Source: Microcystis aeruginosa NIES-843
GTDB lineage: Bacteria; Cyanobacteriota; Cyanobacteriia; Cyanobacteriales; Microcystaceae
Length of the DNA stretch: 32,000 bases
Reading direction: 5' to 3'
Assembly: GCF_000010625.1 (NCBI RefSeq)
Contig: NC_010296.1
Location: 3,990,001-4,022,000 of the forward strand
Every line of letters begins with the position of its first letter. Position 1 is the first letter of the stretch. The notes below the pieces were generated by a model. That model worked only from the letters and a program-made list of their open reading frames with translations, did not search any database and was not told the DNA's origin. Position numbers and translations under genes: made by a program. Below are positions 63 through 30,644 of the stretch, in pieces.

Positions 63-1313
63 CTAATTCTGTACGCAAATATTGCATCTAGAATTAGCTT
101 TGTACGCTTTGACCCGTACTGGGTTAACTACGAACCTCTCTATCGGATTCCCGCTAAAGGCGGCCTCTCCGACTACCTTTCTTCCAATATTTAAGGAACC
201 ATTAATATCTGCTCCATAGAAATAACCCGACGAGCTTCTGAATAGTCCTCTTTTAATTCTCTTGCCTAAATAGCTTTTTTGCTTTTGAATAGACTCTAAG
301 TCCAAGAAACTACATTTAGAGGTATAGCTTTCATTAGTTGTTTTGACCTCTATTCCTACTAAATTTGCTTTATAGGTAAGTTGTTCGATCAACCTTGAAT
401 GAGGAATATTTACGAATGACTGGTTATTTCTATCTCCAATATTAATGTTTTGTTTCCAGCCTTGATTATGACCAATAACTAAAAGGTTAATTTGATGAGC
501 TAGTAATTTATCAATAATATATTTACTAGCGGTGTGGAGGTAATAATCCACCTGGCAATTACGCTTTAAAGTTAAACCTTGTATTCTTTTACTGGTCTTC
601 TGTAGACTGGGTAATTCCGATTTGAGTTTAGCTAGTGTCTTGTTGTACTTTTGATTGCAGGATTTTAAGGCTTTTCCACATACTAAAGTTGGCTGAAATT
701 CGGGAATATTAGAGGTAACAGCAGCTAGGTTATTTAAGCCTAAATCGATAAAAGCATATCTTTCTCCCTCTTGACTTGATGAGGATGGTTGTTCATAGAC
801 AATCTCTAAACAATAAGCACCCAATTTAGGAATAATCCTGACCTCTAAGACTTTCTTTAAATTAGTTTTAAATTCTCAATTAGTCCCTGATAGCTTGATT
901 AAACCTTGCTTCAACGCTTTTTGAGAAATGGCTTGATAGTTATAAGTTAAAACGTTTCTACCTTTTTCCTTGTCTTTGTATCTTGGCAACTTAGGCTCTC
1001 CTGTAAATTTATCTGGCGATTTTTTGGATTGTTCTTTCGCTTTTTGGTAGGATTTAAAGGTTTTTTCTACTTGCTTTAATACTAACTGACTTACTTTGGC
1101 GGGTAAGGCTTGATAATCTGGACTCATTTTTAAGGCATGATGTAACTCAGTCATTGTTAAAAATGGTTGATGTGAAAAGAAAACTTGACGGTTTAAATAA
1201 ACAGCACAATTATACAGATTCTTCGATAAAAATCCTAATTTATCAATTACTGAATAATTTTTGTGATTAAATTTAATTAGATGTTTTTGAACTAATTTCA
1301 TCATTCTCCTCAA
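63..1313 (-). pseudogene. tnpB: IS607-type TnpB (RNA-guided endonuclease family) split by a single in-frame TGA at 876-878
   Basis: ORFs 876-1313 and 63-824 are in the same frame (the offset of 813 is divisible by 3). Reading through gives ...IKLSGTN*EFKTNLKKVLEVRIIPKLGAYCLEIVYEQ..., about 416 codons in total. The C-terminal part has TnpB RuvC-like blocks FIDLGLNNLAA, NESYTSKC and GADINGSLNIGRK. Confidence 0.8.
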
Positions 1314-1866
1314 GGCATTTAATTAAACATTCTGTCTTTCTATTTCGTTGTCTTAATGAGTATAATCGAGCGCAAAATGAGGTAATTATGCTCACGAAGT
1401 CTTGCCTTAAATCGTCTTTTCTTTCTTCTGCTAGATTAACGACCTCTATATCTCTATTTGTTTGAGTTAAAAGAACTTTCAGATAATTAAACCCTACTCT
1501 GCTTAAACGATCTTTATGTTCTACGACAATCAAATTATAATCAGTTTGTTCTAGAAGTTTTAATAATAGCTTTCGATGATCATTGACTCCACTTCCTACT
1601 TCTTTAACTACTCGAACAATTTGATAGCCTTTCGCAATACAATAAGCTTCCAATCTTTTTGCCTGAGTCTCTAAGTCAGATTTATTTTCTGAACTAGAAA
1701 CTCGCGCATAAATAGCTACTTTATTTTCACCGCAAGAACGGTCATCTTCAAAAATAATAATTGTTCCTGTAGGAAGACGTTCTCCTTGTAACTGCCCTCG
1801 ATTCCACATTCTCCAAGCAGTGTCATAACTGATCCCTTTTTTCTTAGCATAATCTGATAGTTTCAT
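1273..1866 (-). CDS. tnpA: IS607-family serine recombinase transposase TnpA (MerR-like HTH + resolvase catalytic domain)
   Basis: 197 aa. The N-terminus MKLSDYAKKKGISYDTAWRMWNRGQL is HTH-like. It is followed by VAIYARVSSSENKSDLETQ, a serine-recombinase active-site block, and then VVEHKDRLSRVGF. Confidence 0.9.
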   Translation of the reverse strand: MKLSDYAKKKGISYDTAWRMWNRGQLQGERLPTGTIIIFEDDRSCGENKVAIYARVSSSENKSDLETQAKRLEAYCIAKGYQIVRVVKEVGSGVNDHRKLLLKLLEQTDYNLIVVEHKDRLSRVGFNYLKVLLTQTNRDIEVVNLAEERKDDLRQDFVSIITSFCARLYSLRQRNRKTECLIKCLEENDEISSKTSN

Positions 1867-5748: not shown

Positions 5749-6139
5749 TAGCAATTTAAGCTTACTCTGTACTTTCAACAAAAATCGAGGGGCTTTGATT
5801 AAATCTCCTCGTGAAGTAGCGACAAAACTCTCAATCCCCGCGTCAATTCCTAAACAGGTCTTCCCTACTGTCATATCGGGAACTAATTCCGTAGATTGGA
5901 AGGAAACCGAAACGTAAAATCCCGACGCTTTTTGGATAATTCGAGCTTGTTTAGGCTCGAACCCAGACGGGTATTCTCTAGATGGCCGGATTCTAATTTT
6001 TCCTAATTGTGGAAAATTTAAGTATTCGTCACCTAAGAAGTTTATTGTAGGGGGTCTAAGTGGGTTTTAGCCTAACTGCCCAATCAAACAACAATCTTAA
6101 GCTTTATCTCCTCAGTCCTCAACAGTGGTACAATTGCCG

Positions 6140-7625
<1,486 letters not shown>

Positions 7626-7711
7626 AGGGGAGTTATGGGAAGGGCTGCTTGATTTCAGCCCTATTCCTAACATAGAAGTCAAAATTCTGGGAATAGCCGC
7701 CGATTTTTTGA

Positions 7712-8251
7712 CTAATTGACCCGTTTTTCTAGATATTGACCGATCATCAATTCTTGACCGGCGCGAGAGATAATAGTTTGTCGGGTGCGATATTGTTGAC
7801 CGATGAGTTTAATTTCTTCTTCAAAGACAGAACCGGCGTATTCTGTTCTCAGACAGAGAGTAGAGGGGTTAGGAAAGGTATAAATAGCACTAACGGGTTT
7901 ATCCGTCGCAAATCCCCGATCGCGATAGAGAATATTATCTAAAATACCGAATATAGTCGAACCGTTGGAGGGTTTTTTACTCTGGGGACGCAGATAATTA
8001 CTTTGCCAAGTGACTTCCGTACCACCTAATAAGGCTGTATCTTCCAGATTATGTAAACGGGCAAGTTGAATTAATGGTTCGCTGCCTTGGGGTAAATATT
8101 TAATCTCGATGGCGCTGATAACTTCTTGGGGTTCCGTTTCTTGGGTGAGGGTGTAATAACGTCTCTGGGATTGCCAGCGTCCTTCTGTCTGCTTAAAAAA
8201 GGCTAAAGCCGAGGTTTCCAGCGATAATTGGGCGGTTTGAATTAATGTCAT
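7712..8251 (-). CDS. Phycobiliprotein (chromophore) lyase, CpcS/CpeS family
   Basis: The N-terminal FFKQTEGRWQSQRRYY matches the FFxxSxGxWxSxR signature of CpcS/CpcU-type lyases, and the size fits (~180 aa). The start was placed at the ATG preceded by AGGAAAGG (residue 19 of the track ORF). Confidence 0.65.
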   Translation of the reverse strand: MTLIQTAQLSLETSALAFFKQTEGRWQSQRRYYTLTQETEPQEVISAIEIKYLPQGSEPLIQLARLHNLEDTALLGGTEVTWQSNYLRPQSKKPSNGSTIFGILDNILYRDRGFATDKPVSAIYTFPNPSTLCLRTEYAGSVFEEEIKLIGQQYRTRQTIISRAGQELMIGQYLEKRVN

Positions 8252-8437
8252 AGAAATAAAACCTTTCCTGTTTTTTGGGAGAGCAGATTTGTTATCCTTT
8301 GTCAAGAGTTTGCCAGAGAACTGTTACACATCTTAATACAATTATAAGCTGTTAAGTATTTAAATTGCCAGTTGAGATGAGGCACTCTTGCAAGAGGCAA
8401 GAGGCAGGAGATAGGGTGGTCACTGCGTGCGCGTTGC

Positions 8438-9876: not shown

Positions 9877-10756
9877 TTAAATTTCATCCCATCCAGTTAA
9901 GCCAGAAGACATAACATAACTGGTAACGGTTGCTTCAAAAAAGTTAGCTTTGGTGTGGCCTTCTTTTTTGGTATCGGAGAAGCGTTCCAGATGATTATAG
10001 GGACTTTTGTTATACTTTTCTTCCCTGTATAAAGGCTCAAGTCCGATCGCTTTCAGTCGAATATTAGCGAGGTATTTGGTGTACTGTTCGGTACTGTATT
10101 CGGTAATACCTAAAATGTCGTTGCCAACAATGTGATTTGTCCAGCGACATTCGTGTTTAACGGCCGTATCGAACATCTCATAAATCTGTTCAACGGAATG
10201 GGAAAAAGTTGCCATGGCTTCGGGAATAAGTTTCTGATACAAACGGACGTGACTTAATTCGTCCCGGTTGATCATTTTGAAAACGTCAGCACTACCGGAC
10301 ATTAGCTGTCGAGAAGCGAGATTATAGAAAAAGATAAAGCCGTTGTAAAAATACAAACTCTCTAGCAAATAATCGGCGACAAGGGCGATAAAATAGCTTT
10401 CAGTAGTTTGTTTATCGATGTATTGCTGGTAGAGACTAGCGATAAATTGACAGCGATCCTTGAGAACTTTATCGGTGCGCCAAAAGTCATAAACTTCGCC
10501 TCGGCGCTCGGAGGGAATAATGGTTTCAATTAAGTATTGATAACTTTGATTGTGCATGGCTTCTTGGGAAATTTGTTCCGCCATACAAAGACTAATTTCT
10601 GGCGCAGTGACGCTACCTTTTAGGTGGGGAATATTACAGGTTTGTACGGAATCAAGAAAAGTTAGATAGGACAAAATACCATCATAAGCATATCTTTCTT
10701 CATCGGTAAGATGCCCGTATTCAGTCACGTCTTGAGTGATATCTAAGCGTTGTGGT
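9877..10756 (-). CDS. nrdB: Ribonucleotide reductase class Ia beta subunit, exon 2
   Basis: ...PQRLDITQDVTEYGHLTDEERYAYDGILSYLTFLDSVQ...EAMHNQSYQY...NRDELSHV...TSYVMSSGLTGWDEI carries typical R2 ferritin-like iron-ligand blocks. Joined to exon 1 it gives 1068 nt, or 355 aa, in frame. Confidence 0.85.
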
Positions 10757-11553
10757 CATTTATGTTCAATTAGGTTCGCTACCCCTAACCCGCTTTATTC
10801 AAGCTGCCATCTGTCACCAAATGGATCGGACTATATCATCATCCTTTGCTTATGCAAAGGAGTCCCCCGCTTCGACAGTCAATCGCTTACTGCCTACTTT
10901 ACTTAGTCAGATATGATCTGCTGTTCATTAGTCTCTACACCTTCTGCTTTTTTTCTAGCAGCTTGGCACGGTATTGTCTGTGGTGCAAAATCCTGTGACA
11001 GTTGGAACACAAGAGAATACACTTATCTAATTCCTTGAACACCTTTTCTTTCTTCAACATCAACATATCTGATGGGGTATATTCCTTCTCAGAGGGTTCG
11101 ATGTGATGAAAATCAAAGGCCGCAATAGTGTCTTCCGTTGCAGCAAATCCACATTCGGAACAGTACCCTCCTTTATAGAGGCAAAACTCAAGTTTTTTTT
11201 GGTTTTTAAACTGAGCATCTCTGTACTTCTGAGAATACTGTTTACTGTAAGTGGATCTTTTTTCTTTATTTCGCTCAATGTAGGCTTTTATTTTTGCGTT
11301 TCCTTCGCTTGATGCGTAATACTGTCGCTTGTATTCACAAGTACAGCTTTTACACCTTGCTACTGTCCCGCTTTTTAGCCTTTTATCTTTGTGAAATTCA
11401 GAAATCGGTTTTGTGGTATGACACTTAGCGCAAGTCTTGCTTTCCATTTGTTTTGTTGTGCGATACATATTACGCACTATAACAAATTTTCTTGCAAGAT
11501 AGATCACAGAGTTTCACCGTTTTCAGGGGATTTAGTCTGGACTACCTTATTTA
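10757..11553 (-). ncRNA. Group I intron interrupting nrdB (797 nt, ORF-containing)
   Basis: The exon ends CUGGAU, and an internal guide GUCCAG lies 11 nt into the intron. This gives a 6-bp P1 with U.G at the splice site. The adjacent GGU can pair with the 3'-exon ACC (P10). An R-like element GAGACUAAUG and an S-like element GAUAUAGUCCG provide the GACUA/UAGUC P7 pair. The intron ends in G, and the splice restores NFWI-PQRLDITQD. Boundaries are inferred, not demonstrated. Confidence 0.75.
10935..11468 (-). CDS. Intron-encoded HNH-family homing endonuclease (Zn-knuckle N-terminal region)
   Basis: The C-terminal FDFHHIEPSEK...LDKCILLCSNCHRILHH is an HNH motif. Upstream are CxxC pairs (CAKCH...CKSCTC, CSECG). 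The ORF lies wholly inside the intron and its stop overlaps the R element. The start is ambiguous: ATG at 11468 or 11447, while the track uses GTG at 11507. Confidence 0.8.
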   Translation of the reverse strand: MYRTTKQMESKTCAKCHTTKPISEFHKDKRLKSGTVARCKSCTCEYKRQYYASSEGNAKIKAYIERNKEKRSTYSKQYSQKYRDAQFKNQKKLEFCLYKGGYCSECGFAATEDTIAAFDFHHIEPSEKEYTPSDMLMLKKEKVFKELDKCILLCSNCHRILHHRQYRAKLLEKKQKV

Positions 11554-11741
11554 ATCCAGAAATTTTCGCGCATTTGTTGATATAAACCCACCGCCCAGGT
11601 GTAGCGGACATCGTTTAACTGCATCAGGTTGGTGGTGTTACCAAACCAGATCGAACGGTTTTCGATCGCATCATCTCCCGCTGGATTGAAGATCGGGGAA
11701 ATGGGCATCGAATGGCAAGAATTAACTAAATGTAAGGACAT
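11554..11741 (-). CDS. nrdB: Ribonucleotide reductase class Ia beta subunit, exon 1
   Basis: MSLHLVNSCHSMPISPIFNPAGDDAIENRSIWFGNTTNLMQLNDVRYTWAVGLYQQMRENFWI is an R2 N-terminal region ending in the conserved NFW block. The track ORF terminates 2 codons into the intron. Confidence 0.85.
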
Positions 11742-11794
11742 GATTACTTGGATATTATGGCACTTTTAGGTTATAGTAGGTTTTCGGTAAAAAG

Positions 11795-12247
11795 TCAAAT
11801 GTTTTGATTTTGATTAGGAATAAATGCAAAATCTAGGGCTTCTGCCAAAGTAAATGGGCAATCCTTCGGGAATTTCTCTAGGTTTATCCCTGTTTCAATA
11901 GCGGCTTTTTTTCTGGCCTTATTATAGCATTTTTTTAAATTGTCTTCTGTTAAAAAACTCTTAAGACTAGGGCTATTTTCTAAATCTTCTTCGATTCTTT
12001 CTCGCTGCTCAAAAAGGGTTAATGCCCAGCTTCTGGTTTGTTTTTCTGGCTCTTGTAAGTATTTTAGTAAATGCCATAAAATCACGATCAGATTGCTTTT
12101 AAGGGCTTTCTGTTGACTGATAGACATAGATTTTATTTCGTCAATTAAATTCTCTAAATCTAAATCAGAAAATTGATGATTTTCTAGTAAATATATGGTT
12201 TTCTCTAGCCAGAGATAGTAGTCCTTTTCGTATAATTTCTTTTCCAT
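11795..12247 (-). CDS. DUF29 family protein, copy 5 (most divergent)
   Basis: MEKKLYEKDYYLWLEKTIYLLENHQFSDLDLENLIDEIKSM... The start was placed at the ATG that follows GGGGGTAATT (residue 5 of the track ORF). Confidence 0.85.
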   Translation of the reverse strand: MEKKLYEKDYYLWLEKTIYLLENHQFSDLDLENLIDEIKSMSISQQKALKSNLIVILWHLLKYLQEPEKQTRSWALTLFEQRERIEEDLENSPSLKSFLTEDNLKKCYNKARKKAAIETGINLEKFPKDCPFTLAEALDFAFIPNQNQNI

Positions 12248-12258
12248 AATTACCCCCA

Positions 12259-12711
12259 TTATTTTGATATTTCAGGAAACCAATCCTCATTTAAAGCCTG
12301 TTCTATAGTGCAAATTGGAGCTAAACCGACCAAATTTTCAGCCATTCCAGATAATTCGATCAAAGAAATACGAGCTTCTTGAAAAGAGTTGTTAAAAATT
12401 TCAATTAGATAAGGCTGTAGACTAGGACTATCGGCAATAATTCTTTTTATGGCACGACGGAAATTCCTAATTTCATTTTTCCATCCTCTTTGATTATATT
12501 CTAATTCCGATTCCCAGTAAGCTAGTTTCAGCAAATGTTCTAATAACCGAGTTAAATAACTTTCTAAACTTCGTTTCTCACTTTTACCCATGCTACTAAT
12601 TTCGTCAATTAAATTCTCTAAATCTAAATCAGAAAACCGATGATTTTCTAGTAAAGATATGGTTTTTTCTAACCAGAGATAGTAGTCTTTTTCGTATAAG
12701 TTCTTTTCCAT
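12259..12711 (-). CDS. DUF29 family protein, copy 4
   Basis: MEKNLYEKDYYLWLEKTISLLENHRFSDLDLENLIDEISSMGKSEKRSLESYLTRLLEHLLKLAYWESE... The last 31 aa are identical to copy 3. Confidence 0.87.
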   Translation of the reverse strand: MEKNLYEKDYYLWLEKTISLLENHRFSDLDLENLIDEISSMGKSEKRSLESYLTRLLEHLLKLAYWESELEYNQRGWKNEIRNFRRAIKRIIADSPSLQPYLIEIFNNSFQEARISLIELSGMAENLVGLAPICTIEQALNEDWFPEISK

Positions 12712-12723
12712 AATTATCCCCCA

Positions 12724-13176
12724 TTATTTTGATATTTCAGGAAACCAATCCTCATTTAAAGCCTGTTCTATAGTGCAAATTGGAGCTAAACCGACCAAAT
12801 TTTCAGCCATTCCAGATAAATCCAGAAACAATTTACGGGCATTTTGATAACAGGACGAGAAAATTTCCGATAGATAGGGCTTTAAACTGGGACTGTCTTC
12901 AATAATTTGTTGAATTCCTAGGCGAAAGTTACGAATTTCATTTTTCCATCCTCTTTGATTATATTCTAATTCCGACTGCCAGTAAACCAGTTTTAGCAAA
13001 TGTTCTAATAACCGAGTCAAATAACTCTTTAAACTTTGTCGTTGGCTTTTGCCCATGTCGCTAATCTCCTCGATGAGATTATCCAAATCTAAATCGGAAA
13101 ATTGATGATTTTCTAGTAAAGATATGGTTTTCTCTATCCAGAGATAATAATCTTTTTCGTATAAATCACTCTTCAT
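12724..13176 (-). CDS. DUF29 family protein, copy 3
   Basis: MKSDLYEKDYYLWIEKTISLLENHQFSDLDLDNLIEEISDMGKSQRQSLKSYLTRLLEHLLKLVYWQSE... Confidence 0.87.
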   Translation of the reverse strand: MKSDLYEKDYYLWIEKTISLLENHQFSDLDLDNLIEEISDMGKSQRQSLKSYLTRLLEHLLKLVYWQSELEYNQRGWKNEIRNFRLGIQQIIEDSPSLKPYLSEIFSSCYQNARKLFLDLSGMAENLVGLAPICTIEQALNEDWFPEISK

Positions 13177-13179
13177 TGC

Positions 13180-13656
13180 TTAATCCTCTCCGAGAAACTC
13201 AGGAAACCAATTTTCATCTAAAATTTGGTCGATTGCTCCCATAGGTGTAGCACTTAAAAGTCTTTTATCGATGCCATAACCTTCGACAAATAGATGGCAA
13301 GCATCCTCATAACATTGCTCAAGAATCTCGGTGAGGTAAGATGCTAAGTTTGTATTATAAGTTCCATCCTTTTTGTTGCTAATAATTCTTTTTATTTGAA
13401 TGCGAAAATTTAAAATCTCACGTCGCCACTTGTTTTTATTGTAATCGCGCTTAGATTGCCAATAAGTTAATTTAAGTAAATGTTCCAAGAGTTTAGTTAG
13501 TAAACTCTCTAACTTCTGACGTTCTCTTCTGGACATATCTTTGATTTCTTCAATTAAATTTTCTAAATCCAACTCAGAAAACTGGCGATTTTCTAGTAAA
13601 GATATGGTTTTCTCTAACCAAAGATAGTAATCCTGTTCGTATAAGTTCGTTTCCAT
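13180..13656 (-). CDS. DUF29 family protein, copy 2
   Basis: METNLYEQDYYLWLEKTISLLENRQFSELDLENLIEEIKDMSRRERQKLESLLTKLLEHLLKLTYWQSK... Confidence 0.87.
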   Translation of the reverse strand: METNLYEQDYYLWLEKTISLLENRQFSELDLENLIEEIKDMSRRERQKLESLLTKLLEHLLKLTYWQSKRDYNKNKWRREILNFRIQIKRIISNKKDGTYNTNLASYLTEILEQCYEDACHLFVEGYGIDKRLLSATPMGAIDQILDENWFPEFLGED

Positions 13657-13694
13657 AGTCCCTCACCTTAATTAACTATAATCCAACCAAATCA

Positions 13695-14156
13695 TCAGTT
13701 ATTATTATCCTCATATTCAGGAAACCAATCATCATCCAAAGCTTGGGCAAGAGTGAGAATTTTTTCCCTGGGCAAAGTATTGATTTTTACTCCCATTTTT
13801 CTAGCTAGGATACGAAGGGCTGACTGATAACATTTATCAAAACTATTCTCTAGATAGGACTTTAAACTTGGATTATCATCAAGAACTTCCCATAAATCAA
13901 TTCTAAAAATAGTAATTTCTCCTTTCCAGTGATTAGCATTATATTGGCTTTCCGATTGCCAATAAGCGAGTTGCAGCAAATGTTGGATTATTCTAGTCAA
14001 TAAACTTGTTAAGGTATGTTTTTCCTTGATACCCATACTTTTAATCTCCTCGATGAGATTATCTAAATCTAAATCGGAAAATTGATGATTTTCTAGTAAA
14101 GATATGGTTTTCTCTATCCAGAGATAGTAATCCTGTTCGTATAAAGTCTTATCCAT
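13695..14156 (-). CDS. DUF29 family protein, copy 1
   Basis: MDKTLYEQDYYLWIEKTISLLENHQFSDLDLDNLIEEIKSMGIKEKHTLTSLLTRIIQHLLQLAYWQSE... The start was set at residue 28 of the track ORF by homology to the other copies. The track extension reads through the nrdA terminator palindrome. Confidence 0.85.
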   Translation of the reverse strand: MDKTLYEQDYYLWIEKTISLLENHQFSDLDLDNLIEEIKSMGIKEKHTLTSLLTRIIQHLLQLAYWQSESQYNANHWKGEITIFRIDLWEVLDDNPSLKSYLENSFDKCYQSALRILARKMGVKINTLPREKILTLAQALDDDWFPEYEDNNN

Positions 14157-14207
14157 AGCTGTGATTAGGTGATCAATAAAACTCATTTTATCAGTCCTAA
14201 TCTTTGA

Positions 14208-14238
14208 TGTAAAAAAATTAAGGTGGGCATTGCCCACC
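14208..14238 (-). terminator. Intrinsic terminator immediately after nrdA
   Basis: The minus strand reads GGUGGGCAAUGCCCACC (perfect palindrome at 14222-14238, 7-8 bp GC-rich stem), followed directly by UUAAUUUUUUUAC. It begins 10 nt after the nrdA stop. Confidence 0.75.
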
Positions 14239-14248
14239 GAAGTTAACC

Positions 14249-16561
14249 TTAATTAGCGCAACTAGAACAACTATCGTCAGACTCTCGAAAATTGTCCTTT
14301 TGTACGGTACGGATATAATAAATCGCTTTACACCCCAATTCCCAGGCCATAACTAGGGTATCAAAGATATCTTTGGCAGTGAGACAACGGTTGGGTTCTT
14401 CGGGGAAATAAACCCCTTCATTGAGGTTGAATAATAACTCCATAGAAATCCCCGTATCGATCCATTCTTGCATAGTAGCGATCGCTTTCACCACTTGCTG
14501 CTGTTCGAGATTTTTGTTCTCTGAATAAAACCAGAAAGCTTCTTCAATAAAAGGTGGTGCGATGGGAACGGTTCCCTTTGCCCATTTATCGTAGAAAAAG
14601 CGACTATAAACCGGCAAAACACTAGCGGTACATCCCTGTACCAAACTAGAGGAAGTATTAGGAGCAATGGCGGTAATATGGGAATTACGGATGCCAAATC
14701 GTTGAATATCTGTTGCTAATTGTTGCCATCTTTGCGGTTGCACCGCATTATTTAAAAACCATGCCACTGGTTTTGCTCCGATTAATTTACCTTGACTCCA
14801 TTCACTACCCAAGAAAGCTTGATAAGCACCGCGTTCTTTGGCTAATTCCATCGAGGAATAGGTACACCAATAGCCAATTTCTTCAAATAAATTACTAATT
14901 TCTGACAGGTTATTGTAGGATAATTTCCGTTTAGCTAACCAGTCAGCCAATCCCATCGCCCCTACCCCAATAGTGCGATATTTATCGTTGTGGTTTTTAG
15001 CATTATCAAAGGGAGGATTAGTGATATCGATAGTATTGTCGAGAATCCTGACAGCGATTTGACAATTAGACTCGATTTCTTCCCTGTCGATATTGGCTAA
15101 ATTAAGGCTAACTAAATTACAGCAATGGGCAGTTTTATCGGGGGTGACATTCGAGAAACTCTCCGTGCATAAATTTACACCGGGGATATAGCCATCGTGC
15201 TTATTAGGATTAGCGCGATTGATGGTATCTTTGAAGGCAATGTAGGGCATTCCTGTTTCTACTTGGGAACGCATGATACTTTTAAATAAGTCTCGGGCAT
15301 TGATTTTTTTATAGAGGAGAATCTCTTGATCTAAATTAGCTTCTACTAAACGATAGGCCTCTTCAAATTCTTCCCCCCATAGTTCCGCTAATTCTATACC
15401 TAATTTATTGCGAACTTCGTAGGGATCTACTAATGTCCACTCGGCTTTATTTATCACCCGACGCATGAATTCATCGGTGATAACTAATTGGGGAAAAACA
15501 TCATAAGCTTTACGTCTTTGATCACCGTTTTCTGTCTGCATTTCCAGAAATTCTGGCACATCTAAATGCCAGATGTCAACACCGATAGTTACTGCCCCGG
15601 CGCGTCTTCCCCCCTGATTTACTGCAATAGCTGTATCGTTGAGTAATTTAATCCAAGGAATAATCCCCCCGGAAGCATTAGCTTTCCCCATTACCCAGCT
15701 ACCAGTGGCGCGAATTCTACTCACATTCACCCCGACACCGCCACCATTTTTTGAGATGCGGGCAGCATTAGTAATCTCGTCGAAAATGCTTTCTAAACTG
15801 TCGTCAATGGAGAGGATAAAACAACTGGTTAAGGAACCTTTGGGAGTGCGTAAATTGGCTAAAATTGGGGTGGCGAGAGAGATTTTTCTTTGAGCAATCG
15901 CTTGATAAAATTTCTTCGCCCAGGGGAGTCTATTAGCTGGTTCTTCCACAGTGGCAAGCAGCAAGGAACAGGTTAATAATGCCTCTTGGGGTAACTCATT
16001 TTTGAGTAAATAACGGCTAGTGATTAACAATGCCCCTGCGTAATCATAATCGATGTCCCAATCGGAATTAATCCAAGAACCAGCTTCTTTTAATTCTGCC
16101 TCGGAATAGATGAGAATCCTTTCGTCGTATAGCAACTTTTTAACTTGAGTTTTGACAGTTTTCTCGTAATTTCCGTACTGATAACCCCGGGCTACTAAGG
16201 TATCTTTCCAAAGACTCCAAATATGCAATCTTCCCGCCACATAGCGCCAATCCGGTTCCTCTGGACTACACATTTCTAGAGCGCAATTAATTAAATTATC
16301 CTGTATTTCCCTAGTGGTAATCCCATCCCGCAGGCGTGTGGTTAAACCCGCTTCTAAGGCGATTGAATTGACTTTTTTGCCCTCACAAGCCCACTCTACC
16401 ACGTCGCGAATTTTGCCGATATTTAAGCTTGTGGTGGAACCATCGCGCCGAATCACTCTAATTCCATGGCTGCCCATATTAGCTAAAGGGGTAGAACGAA
16501 AGGGTATTACTTCGTTATTTTTGTGAATGGAAACGGCAGTAGTCAAGGGCTTCGATTGCAT
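14249..16561 (-). CDS. nrdA: Ribonucleotide reductase class Ia alpha subunit (with N-terminal ATP-cone)
   Basis: 770 aa. Contains an ATP-cone-like IRVIRRDGSTTSLNIGKIRDVV, the catalytic blocks LTSCFIL, NGGGVGVN, NLCTE and PNTSSS, and the C-terminal redox pair CSSC. Confidence 0.95.
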   Translation of the reverse strand: MQSKPLTTAVSIHKNNEVIPFRSTPLANMGSHGIRVIRRDGSTTSLNIGKIRDVVEWACEGKKVNSIALEAGLTTRLRDGITTREIQDNLINCALEMCSPEEPDWRYVAGRLHIWSLWKDTLVARGYQYGNYEKTVKTQVKKLLYDERILIYSEAELKEAGSWINSDWDIDYDYAGALLITSRYLLKNELPQEALLTCSLLLATVEEPANRLPWAKKFYQAIAQRKISLATPILANLRTPKGSLTSCFILSIDDSLESIFDEITNAARISKNGGGVGVNVSRIRATGSWVMGKANASGGIIPWIKLLNDTAIAVNQGGRRAGAVTIGVDIWHLDVPEFLEMQTENGDQRRKAYDVFPQLVITDEFMRRVINKAEWTLVDPYEVRNKLGIELAELWGEEFEEAYRLVEANLDQEILLYKKINARDLFKSIMRSQVETGMPYIAFKDTINRANPNKHDGYIPGVNLCTESFSNVTPDKTAHCCNLVSLNLANIDREEIESNCQIAVRILDNTIDITNPPFDNAKNHNDKYRTIGVGAMGLADWLAKRKLSYNNLSEISNLFEEIGYWCTYSSMELAKERGAYQAFLGSEWSQGKLIGAKPVAWFLNNAVQPQRWQQLATDIQRFGIRNSHITAIAPNTSSSLVQGCTASVLPVYSRFFYDKWAKGTVPIAPPFIEEAFWFYSENKNLEQQQVVKAIATMQEWIDTGISMELLFNLNEGVYFPEEPNRCLTAKDIFDTLVMAWELGCKAIYYIRTVQKDNFRESDDSCSSCAN

Positions 16562-16587
16562 AATTGGAAAATTGCGGCGTTAAAAAA

Positions 16588-16616
16588 CTTGACAAATTAA
16601 TCTATTTGTACTAGAA
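16588..16616 (+). promoter_or_regulatory. Near-consensus sigma70-type promoter (TTGACA-17 nt-TAGAAT) firing away from nrdA
   Basis: TTGACA at 16588-16593, a 17-nt spacer AATTAATCTATTTGTAC, and TAGAAT at 16611-16616. It sits 27 nt from the nrdA start codon but on the opposite strand. Confidence 0.5.
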
Positions 16617-17157
16617 TATTCTATCAGATTTTCTGGGAAAACACAACATCTAGCGTGTTAAATAATCCTATCACTCTATATATGGTATAGCCAGGATTAT
16701 TTTGTTCCCTAAAAACAGTCTTTTGGATGACATTTTCTGGAAAAAATTCTTGATTTTTCCCAGAAAACAGTTCTTTTGTATGCTTGACAAAAGAACTATT
16801 CTTTGATAGGAAAAACAGATTGACAAAATCCTTTTGATCCGATTCTGCTTGACTGCTGAGGAGGTTGTGGTCAGACTTTAGCTAATGGCTGATAGCTTAT
16901 GGGTATAGTTTTGTTCTTAAGTACCTAAGCAAAATTAATTACACATCTAAACCGTCAGCCTTTTGCTGTGATCAGTACACAGTAATCACTGCTCAGTGAA
17001 AAGATAGTAGGAAACTTCTATTTATACTAAATCCAGTTATTAAAAACTGATTATGTATTCCCCCTTTTGCCTTTTGCCTCTTGCATGAGTGCCTGTCCTG
17101 ATATGTAGCCTATGCTCAACGGATTTAGTATTAATACTGCACACTTAAAACTCAAAT

Positions 17158-17206
17158 CTGATAACTGATAGCTGTCTGCTGTCTGCTGTCTCCCGTCTCC
17201 TGTCTC
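17158..17206 (+). repeat. Heptamer tandem repeat, 7 units (CTGATAA CTGATAG CTGTCTG CTGTCTG CTGTCTC CCGTCTC CTGTCTC)
   Basis: Read directly. STRR-like 7-nt periodicity. Confidence 0.9.
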
Positions 17207-17262
17207 CTTTTGCACGACTACTTAACTTTTCGATAATTTAAGACAAGAGTGGATTAAAAGTC

Positions 17263-17305
17263 AAATTTCCTCTGAGAACCTCTGAGAGAGGAAATTTTCT
17301 CTTTT
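17263..17305 (+). terminator. Hairpin with an 11-bp stem followed by a T-rich tract; candidate terminator or attenuator upstream of the DUF3854 gene
   Basis: AAATTTCCTCT (17263-17273) and AGAGGAAATTT (17287-17297) are exact complements with a 13-nt loop, followed by TCTCTTTTCGC. The stem is AT-rich, so terminator strength is uncertain. Confidence 0.4.
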
Positions 17306-17344
17306 CGCTATTTAGTGGCTTACCGCTAGAATAATAGGACAAAA

Positions 17345-17360
17345 ACGCTATATATAGCGT
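17345..17360. promoter_or_regulatory. Perfect 16-bp palindrome ACGCTATATATAGCGT; candidate operator
   Basis: Exact inverted repeat 20 nt upstream of the ATG at 17381 and just downstream of a TAGAAT -10-like hexamer (17327-17332). Confidence 0.4.
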
Positions 17361-17380
17361 CTAGCGAGTAGAGGACAAGG

Positions 17381-18045
17381 ATGAAATATTTAGAAGAATG
17401 GCGTGGTAGCGGGGTGGACGCGGAGTTAATCCATCTCAATGTCACCAGTTTAGCGGGGTTATCTCCCAGTGAATACCTACTCTACTCCCAAGAATTACCG
17501 CGACGCAATGATGGCAGGGTTAGGGATAGTATTCTCAAGCGTTATGAACATACCAGTCAAGGCGGTTGGTGGTGTTCAGGAATTGACTTATTAACTGGTA
17601 ATTATGACCTTTGGGGCTGTTTTAAGCCCGATTTTCCCCGTTTAAGCTTCGATAAGGCTAAACCGATTAAGTACGAACATCCCCCCCAAACCCCTACGGG
17701 AGTCTTTGCTTTGCGGGTTCCCCTGAAAATTTGGCAAAGGATAGCCCAGTCTATCAGTATTAATATTTTAACTGAAGAAGTGGATAATAAGCAAGAGGAT
17801 CTCGGTTTTTGGTCTTGGGTAATCAAACATCCAGAGATACCTATTTGTCTTACGGAAGGAGCGAAAAAAGCGGGGGCATTACTAACAGCAGGTTATGTGA
17901 CAATTGCCTTACCAGGGATTCACAATGGTTATCGTACTCCCAAGGACGAACTAGGTAGGAGAATCGGCAAATCTCATCTAATTCCGCAGCTGGAAAAATT
18001 AGCTAATTCCGGACGAAAGATTTATCTAGTTTTTGATCAAGAAAC
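17381..18045 (+). pseudogene. DUF3854 (Toprim-like) / CyRepA1-like replication protein gene, 5' part, interrupted by an IS30-family element
   Basis: MKYLEEWRGSGVDAELIHLN..., then IPICLTEGAKKAGALLTAGY (Toprim-like glutamate) and KIYLVFDQE- (acidic motif). The frame then runs into the IS. Confidence 0.8.
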
Positions 18046-19136
18046 GCCAATTCAAAAATGAAACGCATCAACCTCAAGAGTTGACAAAGAAAGGCTCATC
18101 AGGTACTGTCTGATCATTAACAAAAACAAATCAGACCCAAAAATGAGCCACCAACATCTTAACATAGAACAAAGAAACTTGCTCTACCAACTTAGTCAGG
18201 AGGGAAATTTATCTCAACGGCAAATGGCCGTCTGGCTCGGATGTCATCAAAGCACAATATCACGGGAATTAAAAAGGAATCAAAGTTCCCTTGGCTGCTA
18301 TCTACCTGACACAGCACAAGCTCAAAGCGAGACAAGGCGAAAAAATGCCAAACAACCCTTTAAAAATGTCAGCGAGTCAGCCTTAGAGTTGGTCAAAGAA
18401 GGATTGAAAGATTATCATAGTCCCGAACAAATAGCAGGTCGTCTGAAAAGAGCCAGTCAAGAATCTCTCAGTCACGAAACCATCTATCAAATGATCTATC
18501 AGAACTATCACGGATGTGGAGAGTACCAGAAATATTTACGCCGGGGGCTTTGTCAAAGAAAGAGTCGAGGCGGAGCAAAAAGTAAGCGTGGAGGGATTCC
18601 AGGGCGTGTAGATATCAGCGAGCGACCAGTAATTGCTGACCAGAAAACTGAAATCGGTCATTGGGAAAGTGACACAATGATTGGAGGCAATCATCTAGGA
18701 GTTCTCGTTACTCATGTAGACAAGGCCTCGAAATTTCTAGTAGCAGGATTAGCCAAAAACAAAACCGCATCGGAAATCAATAGAGTCACAGAAAAACTTT
18801 TTCAAGAGATTCACCCTGACAAAAGAAAAACCTTTACTTGTGACAACGGCAAAGAATTTTGTGGACATCAAGAGTTGAGTCAGAAATTGGGAGCAGATTT
18901 TTATTTTGCTACTCCTTATCATTCTTGGGAGAGGGGATTAAACGAGCATACTAATGGACTATTAAGACAATTTTTTCCCAAGGGAACGAATTTTAAAATT
19001 GTTAAGCCAGAGCAGGTGGAAATAGCCGTAAACTTGATTAACAATCGTCCTCGAAAATGTCTTGACTATCGTACCCCGAATGAGGTATTCTATAAAGGTA
19101 GATCAGACAGTGATGCAATTCAGACTTGAATTGGCC
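18046..19136 (+). mobile_element. IS30-family insertion sequence (~1.09 kb)
   Basis: The 24-bp imperfect terminal inverted repeats GCCAATTCAAAAATGAAACGCATC (18046-18069) and GATGCAATTCAGACTTGAATTGGC (19112-19135) match at 19/24 positions. AAAC occurs on both flanks (18042-45 and 19137-40). There is a single transposase ORF whose stop lies in the right IR. Confidence 0.88.
18143..19129 (+). CDS. IS30-family DDE transposase
   Basis: 328 aa. N-terminal HTH (LSQRQMAVWLGCHQSTISRELKRN) and the DDE blocks HWESDTM, TCDNGKEF and NEHTNGLLRQFFPKG. Confidence 0.93.
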   Translation: MSHQHLNIEQRNLLYQLSQEGNLSQRQMAVWLGCHQSTISRELKRNQSSLGCYLPDTAQAQSETRRKNAKQPFKNVSESALELVKEGLKDYHSPEQIAGRLKRASQESLSHETIYQMIYQNYHGCGEYQKYLRRGLCQRKSRGGAKSKRGGIPGRVDISERPVIADQKTEIGHWESDTMIGGNHLGVLVTHVDKASKFLVAGLAKNKTASEINRVTEKLFQEIHPDKRKTFTCDNGKEFCGHQELSQKLGADFYFATPYHSWERGLNEHTNGLLRQFFPKGTNFKIVKPEQVEIAVNLINNRPRKCLDYRTPNEVFYKGRSDSDAIQT

Positions 19137-19140
19137 AAAC

Positions 19141-21514
19141 TAAACCAAAAACCCAACAAGCGGTTAATTTAGCTTTACAGAGAATGGGTTATCTATTCAG
19201 TCAGGCTAACTGTGAGGTAAAGGTGGTTACTTGGGATGCTGCTGACGGTAAAGGGGTGGATGATTTACTAATCAATCGAGGGGAAGATTACTTCCAACAA
19301 GTCTATCAAAAAGCTACCTCTTGGGAAATTTGGAAGGCAGCGAGTTTAAATAGTTTAACTCTCCCACCTCATCTAGAGTTAAATAGCCGTTACTTGCCAG
19401 ATATTGCCATCCCTACATCAGCGCAGTTAATGGCGATTAAATCGGCTAAAGGTACGGGGAAAACTGAGTTTTTAGCCAAGATAGTTAAACAGGCTATTGC
19501 CAATCAACAAAAAGTTTTAGTTATCGGTCATCGGGTGAAACTGGTGGAGGAGTTATGTCAACGCTTTGGTTTAAACTATATCAGTCAAGTTAGGGACAAT
19601 CCTGCGGCACAAATTTACGGTTATGGTTTATGTATTGACTCTCTCCATCCCCAATCACAAGCTAAATTTCAAGCGGAAGATTGGCGAGAAGCTATCATTA
19701 TTATCGATGAGATCGAACAGGTTCTATGGCATGGGTTAAATGGGGATACTTGTAAAACTAATCGTGTGGCAATTTTAAGATCCCTAAAGTCCCTGCTGCA
19801 AACTGTGGTCAGCAGTGGGGGCAAAGTCCTAGTTGCCGATGCTGATTTAAGTGATATTTCCCTAGAATACTTAACTTCTCTAGCGGCTATTAAACTAGAA
19901 ACTTTCTTGATTAGTAACGAGTGGAAACCTAATTATCAGCAAGCTTGGCAAGTTTATAACTACTCTGATAATACTCCCCAACAGCTAGTTAAGGATTTAG
20001 TTGAACATATTAAAGAGGGAGGAAAACCTTTTGTTTGTCTATCGGCACAAAAATTAACCAGCAAATGGGGGACAATTACCCTAGAATCTTATCTAAGAAA
20101 GCAATTCCCTCAGAAGAAAATTCTGCGGATAGATTCAGAGTCATTGCCAGATTATGGTCACGCTGCCTATCAAGCGATTGGCAATTTAAATCAGTTGTTG
20201 CTTAACTATGATATAGTTCTAGCTAGTCCTGCGATCGAAACGGGAATTAGTATTGATATTCAGCAACACTTTACCTCGGTTTGGTGTTTAGCACAGGGAA
20301 TTCAAACTCCCACTTCTATCGCTCAATTTTTAGGGAGAATTAGAGAGAATATTCCTCGTTATATTTGGTCAGCAGTGTACGGATTTAATCAGGTGGGCAA
20401 TGGTTCCACTTCTATCCCCAAACTTCTCACCTCTGGACACCGACTAACGGAGGTTAATATTCGCTTATTACACCAGTCAGATTTAGAATCTCTGGAGGAT
20501 TTAGATACAACTTTTCAAGCGGAATCTCTCCTCTGCTGGGCAAAAATGGCTGTGCGAGTAAATGCTTATATGCTTAATTATCGTCAGTCAATTCTAGGTA
20601 TTTTACAAGCAGAAGGTCATAGAATTAAAGAACGGAATCAGGAAGAAGAACTAGAAATAAATAATCAGTTAACGGCAGCAATTGAAGAAATTAGGGAACA
20701 TAATTATCGTTCTGAATGCAAGGCCATTGCCAGCGCTTCTGAGATCACGGAATCAGAATATCGTTGGCTAAAAAAACAGTTAATTAAGTCAGTGAAAGAA
20801 AGGAGAATTATCAGGAAATATGACCTATACAAACGCTATGGAATCCCCGTCACACCGCAATTAGTGATTAAAGATGATCAAGGATGGTATCAAGAACTAC
20901 GCCTACATTACTTTTTGACAATTGGGCGACAATTTTTGTGCGATCGAGATGCTTTAATTGCGCGTAAACTGATAGAATCAGGTCACGGAAGTTTGTTTAT
21001 TCCCGATTTTAATGGTAGTCAATTAGGAGTGATCATCGGGACGTTAGAAGTGTTAGGAATTCCCGTATTATTAGCTAACCCTGAAAGAGAATTAACTAAT
21101 CATGATGCCGATTTACAAAAAATGGCCGAAATCGCCATTAAAAACCGCAACGAGATTAAAACTATCACCAAGATTAACCTCTCTAATACTTCCCGTCCTC
21201 TGACGATTATTCGTAATTGTTTGAACTTGTTAGGTTATGAATTAACCAGCAAGGGCAGCCAGAGAATTGCTAAAAAATCTCTAAAAGTTTATCAGATTGT
21301 TGCCCCTCATGATGGTAGAGAACAAGTGTTTAAACAATGGTTATTTAGAGATGAAAAATGTGCGGGAAGTTCTGAGATTTGGTATGAGGACTATCTCTTT
21401 TCTCTCACCCAGAAACCATCTCTAGGCGAACCAGAAAATGCTTATATTCAATTAAGTCTAGAATTTAGTCTAGCTATGGGGAAAATTGTCTATTTAAGCG
21501 ACTTTTTTGCCTAA
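19141..21514 (+). pseudogene. DUF3854 / CyRepA1-like gene, 3' part (rest of the Toprim-like domain + P-loop NTPase/helicase-like domain)
   Basis: After the IS the frame continues as -TKPKTQQAVNLALQRMGYLFSQANCEVKVVTWDAADGKGVDDLL. It has Walker A SAKGTGKTEF and Walker B IIIIDEIEQ. Joining 17381-18045 to 19141-21514 gives 3039 nt, or 1012 aa, in frame. Confidence 0.8.
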
Positions 21515-30287: not shown

Positions 30288-30644
30288 CTAATATTCATGG
30301 GAGTCTTGATTCTCGACATATTTCTTAAGTTGGTCTATTGTGACACCGCCACAACTAGCCACAAAATATACCCCTGTCCACAAAATTCTCTTATCTTGAC
30401 CATATATCTCTTTCAAGTGGTCTGAAAAGTTATCCCACATCAGCTGGCAAGAAGTTGATTTTAAGTTAGCGATTAGACTACTTAACAGCTTATGGGGTGG
30501 GTAAGTTAAAAGAATGTGAACATGGTCTGATTCTCCGTTAATCTCTATTACCTTCGCCTCCCATTTCTCAGCTATGTTTTGAAAAACTATTCTCAAAAAC
30601 TCTAAATGCTTTTTCTGGAATACTTTCCGATGATATTTTGTCAC
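30288..30644 (-). CDS. tnpA: IS200/IS605 Y1 (HUH) transposase TnpA; the conserved N-terminal strand lies upstream with no canonical start, so the gene is possibly defective
   Basis: HUH motif SDHVHILLTYPP and the catalytic-Tyr region GVYFVASCGGVTIDQLKKYVENQ. The frame stays open upstream (IKTNYFKTCRATFNLTVHIVLV-TKYHRKVF) up to 30707, where ATA sits in the position an ATG would be expected. Confidence 0.8.
   Translation of the reverse strand: MTKYHRKVFQKKHLEFLRIVFQNIAEKWEAKVIEINGESDHVHILLTYPPHKLLSSLIANLKSTSCQLMWDNFSDHLKEIYGQDKRILWTGVYFVASCGGVTIDQLKKYVENQDSHEY

Follow-up and report, generated by a model that had tools for sequence, protein, structure and literature searches.

The window analyzed here, a 32-kb stretch of the Microcystis aeruginosa NIES-843 genome (contig NC_010296.1, positions 3,990,001 to 4,022,000), contains five tandem genes of the DUF29 family between nrdA and nrdB, the genes for the two subunits of class Ia ribonucleotide reductase (RNR). 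Five tandem matches to this family at E-values of 1e-41 to 1e-48 are far beyond chance. The explanation that we favor, with somewhat better than even confidence, is that these genes form a tandem array of stand-alone, recombination-driven accessory genes that occupies a hotspot between the two RNR genes.

According to this explanation, copy 5 (the copies are numbered from nrdA toward nrdB) would have resided at the nrdB side since before the split of the Microcystis, Chroococcus, Snowella, Synechocystis-like, and Crocosphaera lineages, and a second DUF29 lineage, represented by copies 1–4, would have joined the locus in Microcystis only. The array would grow, shrink, and reshuffle by unequal crossover and gene conversion between its copies. 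The homology for recombination would be supplied by the similar first ~120 nt of the genes and by a repeated junction, and the presence of one to five copies and of chimeric alleles in different strains would be due to these similar heads and junctions. All copies would be kept functional by purifying selection, and co-transcription of the array into nrdB would cause its expression together with RNR. More speculatively, DUF29 would probably act alone and may bind a metal or ligand; its role would lie in genetic conflict, be it defence, anti-defence, or selfish maintenance, and not in nucleotide reduction, and several diverged copies would widen this activity.

The DUF29 genes between nrdA and nrdB

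All genes of the locus lie on the minus strand. The nrdA gene (14249–16561) encodes a large RNR subunit of 770 aa without an intein. This protein is 97–98% identical to Microcystis proteins; the ATP-cone, Ribonuc_red_lgN, and Ribonuc_red_lgC domains are found in NrdA of relatives. It is followed by DUF29 copy 1 (13695–14156, 153 aa from its ATG; Pfam E-value 8.9e-47), copy 2 (13180–13656, 158 aa, with a 6-residue insertion; 3.4e-41), copy 3 (12724–13176, 150 aa; 2.8e-48), copy 4 (12259–12711, 150 aa; assigned by Pfam match and alignment and 79% identical to copy 3), and copy 5 (11795–12247, 150 aa; 1.5e-46), the anchor copy that adjoins nrdB. The spacers between consecutive copies, from copy 1 to copy 5, are 38, 3, 12, and 11 nt long; 92 nt separate the nrdA stop (14249) from the copy 1 ATG, and 53 nt separate the copy 5 stop from the nrdB ATG (11741). 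The nrdB gene consists of exon 1 (11547–11741), recognized by the open reading frame (ORF) listing and the NrdB scan, and exon 2 (9877–10728; Ribonuc_red_sm, E-value 9.5e-55).

The ORF listing bears out an earlier note on this DNA, which described five co-oriented ORFs of these same lengths filling the spacer between nrdA and nrdB. The start of copy 1 had been corrected there from a GTG codon (14237) to the ATG, and the correction is right, because the longer ORF would cross a terminator-like hairpin (14222–14238) and its T-run. The assignment to DUF29, also made in that note, is supported by a profile search: all five copies match the Pfam model (PF01724) over its whole length (positions 1–138) with 141–164 bits versus a cut-off of 22.5. 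In the 32-kb window, no DUF29 genes besides the five array genes were found. The array is AT-rich, with a GC content of 0.32–0.34 and a GC content at third codon positions (GC3) of 0.25–0.32, compared to 0.42 and 0.40, respectively, for nrdA.

Conserved positions of the family were derived from 111–128 diverse DUF29 members. The family-invariant residues are Y6, D9, W13, D30, E37, H59, W77, R85, and Y110 (copy 3 numbering), and the array copies retain them, minor conservative changes aside. D9, W13, D30, E37, H59, W77, and R85 are identical in all five copies. The minor changes are at position 36, where copies 4 and 5 have D, and at position 62, where copy 1 has Q and the other four copies keep K.

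The AF2 model of copy 3 (pLDDT 95.8, pTM 0.85) consists of four long helices and a short C-terminal helix. By helical periodicity, as read from the profile and the model, the conserved polar residues fall in stripes on helices 1–3, which suggests that they would contribute to a shared site in the predicted structure. One member of the family has been solved (PDB 3FCN, “an alpha-helical protein of unknown function”); the array copies match the family model fully, and their predicted fold is all-helical. The DUF29 profile aligns with 3FCN from end to end (E-value 6.9e-12); the Foldseek matches did not include this structure. Because each array copy is an intact gene, appears to be under purifying selection (see below), and keeps the invariant polar residues, every copy probably yields a functional four-helix protein.

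Two lineages and recombination between copies

A set of 80 related nrdA loci was scanned with the DUF29 profile and NrdB; L001–L006 and L016 are seven species-representative Microcystis loci. The number of copies between nrdA and nrdB is one in L016, two in L005 and L006, and three in L001, L003, and L004, and it reaches five in the window, in further genomes, and in metagenome contigs. L002 contains three copies, a fragment, a 4.8-kb insert, and one more copy. Relatives therefore do not share an invariant five-gene block; they carry one to five copies, some of them chimeric. CP191409.1 and metagenome contigs carry the exact copy 1 protein in five-copy arrays with an unchanged gene order, and the copy 1 body was not seen in the seven species-representative loci. 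A copy-5-type gene was found in all eight Microcystis loci examined.

In L002 (M. ichthyoblabe FBCC-A1114, 13792–18900), the array is interrupted by glnA and an inverted thiC-cpeS block. In the window, the same block is located beyond nrdB (6073–8347). Since the junction of the L002 insert contains a truncated DUF29 gene that is intact no further than profile position 28, the array seems able to act as a breakpoint for larger rearrangements.

The relationships of the copies were analyzed by a rough neighbor-joining tree with 123 diverse DUF29 family representatives. In this tree, copy 5 clusters with the final DUF29 gene of each Microcystis locus and with nrdA-linked genes from Chroococcus, Synechocystis, Snowella, and Crocosphaera. 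Copies 1–4 form a clade distant from copy 5. Identity of copy 5 is 49–57% to the nrdA-linked genes of other genera and 45–47% to copies 1–4. Among proteins at least 66% identical to copy 3, all those with contexts checked are nrdA-linked and come from Microcystis-like genomes. In other genera, the nearest relatives of copies 1–4 are found at different loci; they include a tandem pair beside Uma2 and NACHT-like genes in Crocosphaera subtropica and a solitary gene flanked by ftsY and the atp operon. As judged from the tree, the array combines two lineages: copy 5 is the older resident, and copies 1–4 represent a second lineage, confined at this locus to Microcystis. Hence the earlier description of the genes as five paralogues holds insofar as all belong to DUF29; they do not appear to be simple paralogues of one another, copy 5 being placed by the tree in a different, older lineage.

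The protein alignment confirms the previously noticed pattern of an N-terminal block common to all five copies and divergent tails, with copy 5 having ILWHLLK---YLQEPE in place of the LLEHLLKLxYWQS block. At the DNA level, copies 3 and 4 share a conversion or duplication tract that extends over the tail and stop codon and into the first part of the TAATGGGGG junction (12718–12819, 102 nt identical in register to 12253–12354), and the junctions after these two copies are alike, AAATAATGGGGG(A/T)AATTATGGAAAAG. The head of copy 1 contains a tract of 85 nt (14042–14126) with one mismatch to the head of copy 3 (13062–13146). Both shared blocks are real, but their dimensions differ from those first reported: the former had been given as 96 nt, and the latter as ~95 nt with 2 mismatches, while the best 95-nt window has 4 mismatches.

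The proportion of synonymous differences (pS) between copies 3 and 4 is 0.15 in the tails versus 0.56–0.63 over the remainder of both genes, and pS between copies 1 and 3 is 0.21 over codons 5–40. Outside such local conversion tracts, synonymous sites are saturated among the window paralogues (pS 0.5–0.9), and so the copies are old. A sliding comparison of strain alleles to the window copies yields the compositions 1|4|3 for L005_1, 1|3|4 for L006_1, 3|4 for L001_2, and 3|4|3 for L004_2, and L001_1 combines a copy-1 start with a copy-2 body. The copy 2 orthologues L001_1, L002_1, L003_1, and L004_1 each carry a copy-1-type 5' end. Because the strain alleles are patchworks of the window copies, two- and three-copy arrays can be explained as deletion products of unequal crossover, with conversion shuffling the segments. 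These mosaic alleles and the local tracts of low pS agree with the repeated duplication or gene conversion proposed in the earlier note. Polymorphic copy number, chimeric alleles, homogenized 5' segments, and repeated junctions are also typical of concerted arrays, for example, orphan immunity arrays; the DUF29 array differs from the latter in that it lacks a cognate toxin and that positive selection is not apparent.

The similarity of the heads includes copy 5. The first 120 nt show 77–89% nucleotide identity among all five genes, and the next 66 nt show 50–68%, except for copies 3 and 4 (0.81 and 0.83). Synonymous divergence of copy 5 from copies 1–4 is 0.31–0.53 over codons 5–40 and 0.8–1.0 over codons 41–62. 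The head contains many residues that are near-invariant in the family (Y6, D9, W13, D30, N33, E36, E37, H59, and K62). The shared head thus has two causes, (i) residues conserved family-wide and (ii) partial homogenization within the array. The contribution of the latter follows from the lower synonymous divergence of the head and from our reading of the alignments, in which the five copies agree at about half of those head positions that are variable in the family. Head conservation as a family-wide property only was considered and dropped, since copy 5 is less divergent from copies 1–4 at synonymous sites of the head than downstream.

Comparison between strains gives a ratio of nonsynonymous to synonymous substitution rates (dN/dS) of 0.21–0.34 per copy type, with 0.14–0.23 for the heads and 0.29–0.67 for the tails, by a crude pairwise method. 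These values indicate purifying selection in all copy types. As far as such a crude measure can tell, no region, the variable tails included, shows diversifying selection, dN/dS nowhere reaching 1. The combination of head and tails had been put forward in the earlier note as characteristic of, among others, specificity cassettes, an interpretation that is not supported, as the head holds family invariants and is partly homogenized and dN/dS stays below 1 throughout. Variable tails behind a common head are, on their own, no evidence of such a cassette.

The hotspot downstream of nrdA and its transcription

Within 5 kb downstream of nrdA, 33 DUF29 genes occur in 304 kb, versus 2 in 804 kb of other flanking sequence. 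The family is ~40–90-fold denser just downstream of nrdA than in the remaining sampled flanks, an enrichment near RNR loci on which the earlier note had made its cassette idea depend. Of the 70 related nrdA loci, 17 have the array, and these 17 belong to a single part of Chroococcales; besides Microcystis, DUF29 genes just downstream of nrdA are observed in Crocosphaera, Chroococcus, Snowella, a Synechocystis-like metagenome-assembled genome, and other Microcystaceae. No DUF29 genes were found at this position in Moorena, Xenococcus, Pleurocapsa-like genomes, and diatom endosymbionts, where nrdA and nrdB are 30–900 bp apart. A search of long DUF29-free nrdA-nrdB spacers, including those of endosymbionts, revealed no DUF29 remnants.

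Other genes occupy the same position. In Crocosphaera watsonii, AbiJ/Abi_C, IS200, and DUF4926 genes precede the DUF29 array (L097/L098, 3973–7368), and in another Crocosphaera locus PIN and DUF4325 genes precede three DUF29 genes (L020, 12577–16176); nrdB is not adjacent to the array in these loci. In an uncultured cyanobacterium (L031, 12401–14473), a gene for a 690-aa AAA_15/AAA_21 ATPase lies exactly between nrdA and nrdB, replacing DUF29. It is OLD-like by sequence reading only, Pfam giving just AAA_15, AAA_21, and SMC_N. Further genes just downstream of nrdA in relatives encode DUF6173 with IS200, Schlafen AlbA_2, DUF6883, and DUF4365. The position just downstream of nrdA is a variable accessory hotspot in relatives.

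In this respect the locus resembles defence islands and integration hotspots: gene content varies between the same core genes, known defence genes (Abi, the OLD-like ATPase, PIN, and Schlafen-like) are found there in relatives, and the base composition of the array is atypical. It differs from them in that DUF29 is not a recognized defence gene, with no significant match in PADLOC, that no integrase or att-like repeats flank the array, and that the array is located inside an essential gene pair.

The RNR genes themselves harbor selfish elements. A LAGLIDADG intein is present in the ~1115-aa NrdA of Microcystis-like strains and related genera (L105, 1104–4463; L091, 1815–5159; L097, 518–3865). 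In the window, nrdB is interrupted by a group I intron (10729–11546), matched by RF00028 at 10807–11080 with 31.8 bits and an E-value of 5e-6, which is under the gathering score. The intron contains an ORF for an HNH endonuclease (10935–11507; phrog_2255, E-value 3.9e-30). The same intron is found in L005. L004 and L006 carry a different one, inserted after exon-2 residue 131, and nrdB of L002, L003, and L016 has no intron. The suggestion of the earlier note that the nrdA-nrdB spacer is a landing site is thus upheld by the Abi, ATPase, PIN, Schlafen-like, and IS200 genes found there in relatives and by the inteins and introns of the RNR genes.

The transcription units of the locus can be outlined from its signals. 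Just after the nrdA stop, a terminator-like GC hairpin, GGTGGGCAATGCCCACC, is followed by a T-run (14222–14238; -13.6 kcal/mol, z -4.0). The window shares it with L002, L005, L006, and L016, and L001, L003, and L004 have lost it by deletion; in these three of the seven other Microcystis loci the nrdA-DUF29 spacer is 38 nt. Given its presence or absence, the coupling of nrdA to the array may differ between strains. Upstream of copy 1 lies a promoter-like sequence, TTTACA-17 nt-TAAAAT with an extended TG (14185–14213), which is a consensus match only. The 53-nt spacer between copy 5 and nrdB (11742–11794) is near-invariant across the Microcystis loci. This spacer contains a candidate nrdB promoter, TTGACT-17 nt-TATAAC, which overlaps the copy 5 stop, and nrdB may thus have its own promoter as well. 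No terminator-like sites were found on the minus strand from the 14222 hairpin to nrdB. Because the genes are co-oriented and tightly spaced, with no terminator-like site between copy 1 and nrdB, the geometry of the locus argues that transcription probably continues from the array into nrdB, so that the array would be expressed along with RNR.

Several other features of the window can be mentioned. At 6138–7625 (plus strand), an ordinary TPP riboswitch (66.7 bits) directly precedes thiC. On the plus strand, a DUF3854/ResIII helicase-like gene (17381–21514) is split by an IS30-like element (HTH_38 and rve, 18143–19129) into the parts 17381–18061 and 19184–21514; L099 and L105 have the intact gene (997–1006 aa). 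Insertion sequences are numerous in the window, which also contains an IS607-like pair of a serine recombinase and TnpB/OrfB_IS605 (63–1866, minus strand) and an IS200-type Y1 transposase (30288–30644, minus strand).

Possible functions of DUF29

The DUF29 family is expanded in cyanobacteria and contains 7,798 clusters at 50% identity. To our knowledge, it is among the oldest Pfam families still without a function. The searchable literature on DUF29 (PF01724, IPR002636) assigns no function to it and holds only a passing mention, of self-activation in a yeast two-hybrid assay. Foldseek searches of PDB and BFVD yielded nothing significant; the best match was the translin-like nuclease NeC3PO (E-value ~1, TM 0.38), a resemblance that recurred across the searches with a probability of 0.63–0.80 and an E-value of ~1 and is taken as a lead only. 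Scans with PADLOC and NCBIfam gave no usable match to the DUF29 copies, among PHROGs only the unnamed family phrog_11797 matched, and an IMG/VR scan with the alignment of copies 1–4 found no relatives. As for nuclease domains, Pfam gives DUF29 alone for these copies, with no nuclease fold at a significant level. The RNR accessory families NrdI, NrdH, YfaE, and NrdR and the all-alpha pyrophosphatases MazG and dimeric dUTPase gave no Pfam, NCBIfam, PDB-sequence, or Foldseek match.

Two candidate relationships were rejected. A relation to MazG/dimeric dUTPase-like nucleoside triphosphate pyrophosphatases, prompted by the EEIxxMGxSE motif and the RNR context, found no match in Foldseek PDB or PDB profile searches. 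For HEPN domains, the sole structure returned had a TM of 0.23 and a probability of 0.05, and the Rx4-6H motif is missing. Domain fusions are uninformative as a functional clue, being tandem DUF29 proteins or probable gene-call artefacts with TnpB HTH or RTX repeats.

Genomic neighbors were surveyed at 77 other (metagenomic) DUF29 loci, with 123 nearest neighbors that match 191 Pfam families. At least two DUF29 copies occur in 8 of these loci. No recurrent partner gene, toxin or enzyme, was found among the 123 neighbors, and only a few of them are defence genes. The only recurrent non-TPR neighbor is Uma2 (5 of 123). Uma2 (DUF820) is a putative restriction-endonuclease-like family, also expanded in cyanobacteria. 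In Crocosphaera subtropica, a Uma2 gene starts 11 nt after a DUF29 pair (L081, 8001–9469), and Uma2 genes are seen as well in several of L107–L186; the two families may be loosely associated. In the metagenomic locus L093 (3446–6450), two DUF29 genes flank a ShlB/TpsB transporter beside a TPS-domain protein and RTX proteases, and this is the only DUF29 context seen that resembles a secreted-toxin locus.

DUF29 genes are also carried by mobile replicons. They occur alone on 5–7 kb Rahnella plasmids and also on Piscirickettsia, Citrobacter, and cyanobacterial plasmids, and DUF29 is ORF11 of the Ralstonia inovirus RSS1. The genes of RSS1/RSS0 (ORF11) and of Rahnella plasmids pHW104 and pHW4594 align to 93% of the length of copy 5 with 34–40% identity. 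Like the array genes they are accessory, being solitary genes on mobile replicons; they differ in being single copies, on proteobacterial elements, with no link to RNR. The literature on RSS1 ORF11 and pHW104 states no function for the DUF29 gene. The position of the array, together with carriage on mobile replicons, suggests a role of DUF29 in defence, anti-defence, or selfish maintenance.

An alternative is that DUF29 proteins of this locus are RNR-linked factors, co-expressed with NrdA and NrdB, that tune reductase activity, the metal cofactor, or dNTP pools, e.g., under phage attack or stress. This would account for the strong enrichment just downstream of nrdA, for the retention of the copy-5 lineage between nrdA and nrdB in several genera, for same-strand, tightly spaced genes with no internal terminator-like site, for purifying selection, and for conserved acidic, His, Lys, and Arg residues that cluster as they would in a metal or nucleotide site. 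However, DUF29 is missing at 53 of the 70 related loci despite the same class Ia RNR, the reduced genomes of diatom endosymbionts have neither DUF29 nor a remnant of it, and copy number varies from one to five inside one genus. The Crocosphaera arrays are split from nrdA by Abi, IS, or PIN genes, with nrdB elsewhere; the closest non-Microcystis relatives of copies 1–4 adjoin ftsY and the atp operon, or Uma2; and small plasmids and an inovirus without RNR carry DUF29. Moreover, nrd genes are absent from the recurrent neighbors at the 77 other loci, and no similarity to NrdI, NrdH, YfaE, NrdR, or MazG-type proteins is seen. A direct role of DUF29 in RNR function, also considered in the earlier note as a set of RNR-linked modulators, is therefore unlikely.

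In T-even phages, the space between nrdA and nrdB is occupied by mobE, a free-standing homing endonuclease gene. The DUF29 genes could be selfish genes of this type, spreading to intergenic sites and sheltering in an essential gene pair. Like mobE, they are optional genes between class Ia RNR subunit genes, beside other selfish elements (the nrdA intein, two alternative nrdB intron positions, and the HNH ORF, all variable between strains), and their presence between conserved genes is sporadic, in 17 of 70 related nrdA loci. Patchy occurrence between syntenic core genes is observed both at nrdA|nrdB and at ftsY|atp. DUF29 genes are solitary, without a partner gene, and travel on plasmids and a phage; a truncated one marks the rearrangement junction of L002. 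The conserved acidic and His cluster and the weak, repeated Foldseek likeness to the helical nuclease C3PO also point in this direction. Nevertheless, mobE has a recognized endonuclease domain, and neither such a domain nor a known nuclease fold is detectable in DUF29. The old anchor copy, under constant purifying selection and with orthologues long maintained at a single site, is unlike the cycle of gain, decay, and loss of homing genes, no decayed copies are left in empty spacers, and homologous recombination alone explains the growth of the array. On balance, we consider a homing-type origin improbable.

That the array is an immunity or antitoxin bank, as was suspected initially, whose variable C-terminal halves neutralize different toxins of competitors or phages like the orphan immunity arrays of polymorphic toxin systems, is a poor prospect: it would suit the tandem diverged paralogues with a common head and different, faster-evolving tails, the DUF29 pair flanking the transporter gene in L093, a SUKH-4 immunity-type gene two genes past nrdB in another locus, and some other DUF29 genes among toxin-antitoxin genes, but there is no toxin gene in the window and none recurring beside DUF29 elsewhere, dN/dS is below 1 in every region, the divergence of paralogues is old and not rapid, many charged residues are near-invariant across the 7,798 clusters, which indicates a conserved site and not a fast-changing surface, and DUF29 is not in PADLOC.

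The favored explanation, stand-alone accessory genes recombining in a hotspot, also has points that weigh against it. No experiment or homology gives DUF29 an activity, Foldseek, PADLOC, and NCBIfam all being without a significant match. Defence genes make up only a modest share of DUF29 neighbors elsewhere, and so the conflict role is argued mainly from position. Copy 5 has long been retained at exactly this site in several genera and is under purifying selection, which could instead point to a functional tie to RNR expression. Co-transcription is deduced from geometry only; the hairpin after nrdA and the promoter-like sites before copy 1 and nrdB would complicate the transcription units. The division into two lineages depends on a rough neighbor-joining tree.

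A more specific version of the conflict role, which we put forward as doubtful, is that DUF29 is a new single-gene conflict factor, a four-helix protein with a buried acidic/His/Arg site that acts on nucleic acids or nucleotides, such as a helical nuclease or a nucleotide-binding sponge. Location in the RNR operon of Microcystaceae would couple its expression to the synthesis of DNA precursors that phages need, and the recombining array would vary its function between strains.

Public records already label these genes as DUF29. The searchable literature does not describe their conserved link to nrdA, the composition of the array from two lineages, or its recombining copy-number series. The locus provides a natural series of strains with one to five DUF29 copies at one site beside essential, well-studied genes, and thus a handle on this family. 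In bloom-forming Microcystis, the RNR gene pair is a meeting point of selfish and accessory DNA, namely the intein, introns, HNH gene, and DUF29 genes, joined in relatives by Abi, OLD-like, and PIN genes. If DUF29 is a conflict gene, the array would mark differences between strains in resistance to phages or competitors in an organism of harmful blooms. If DUF29 is only a passenger, the array nevertheless illustrates clearly how genes evolve in concert within an essential operon.

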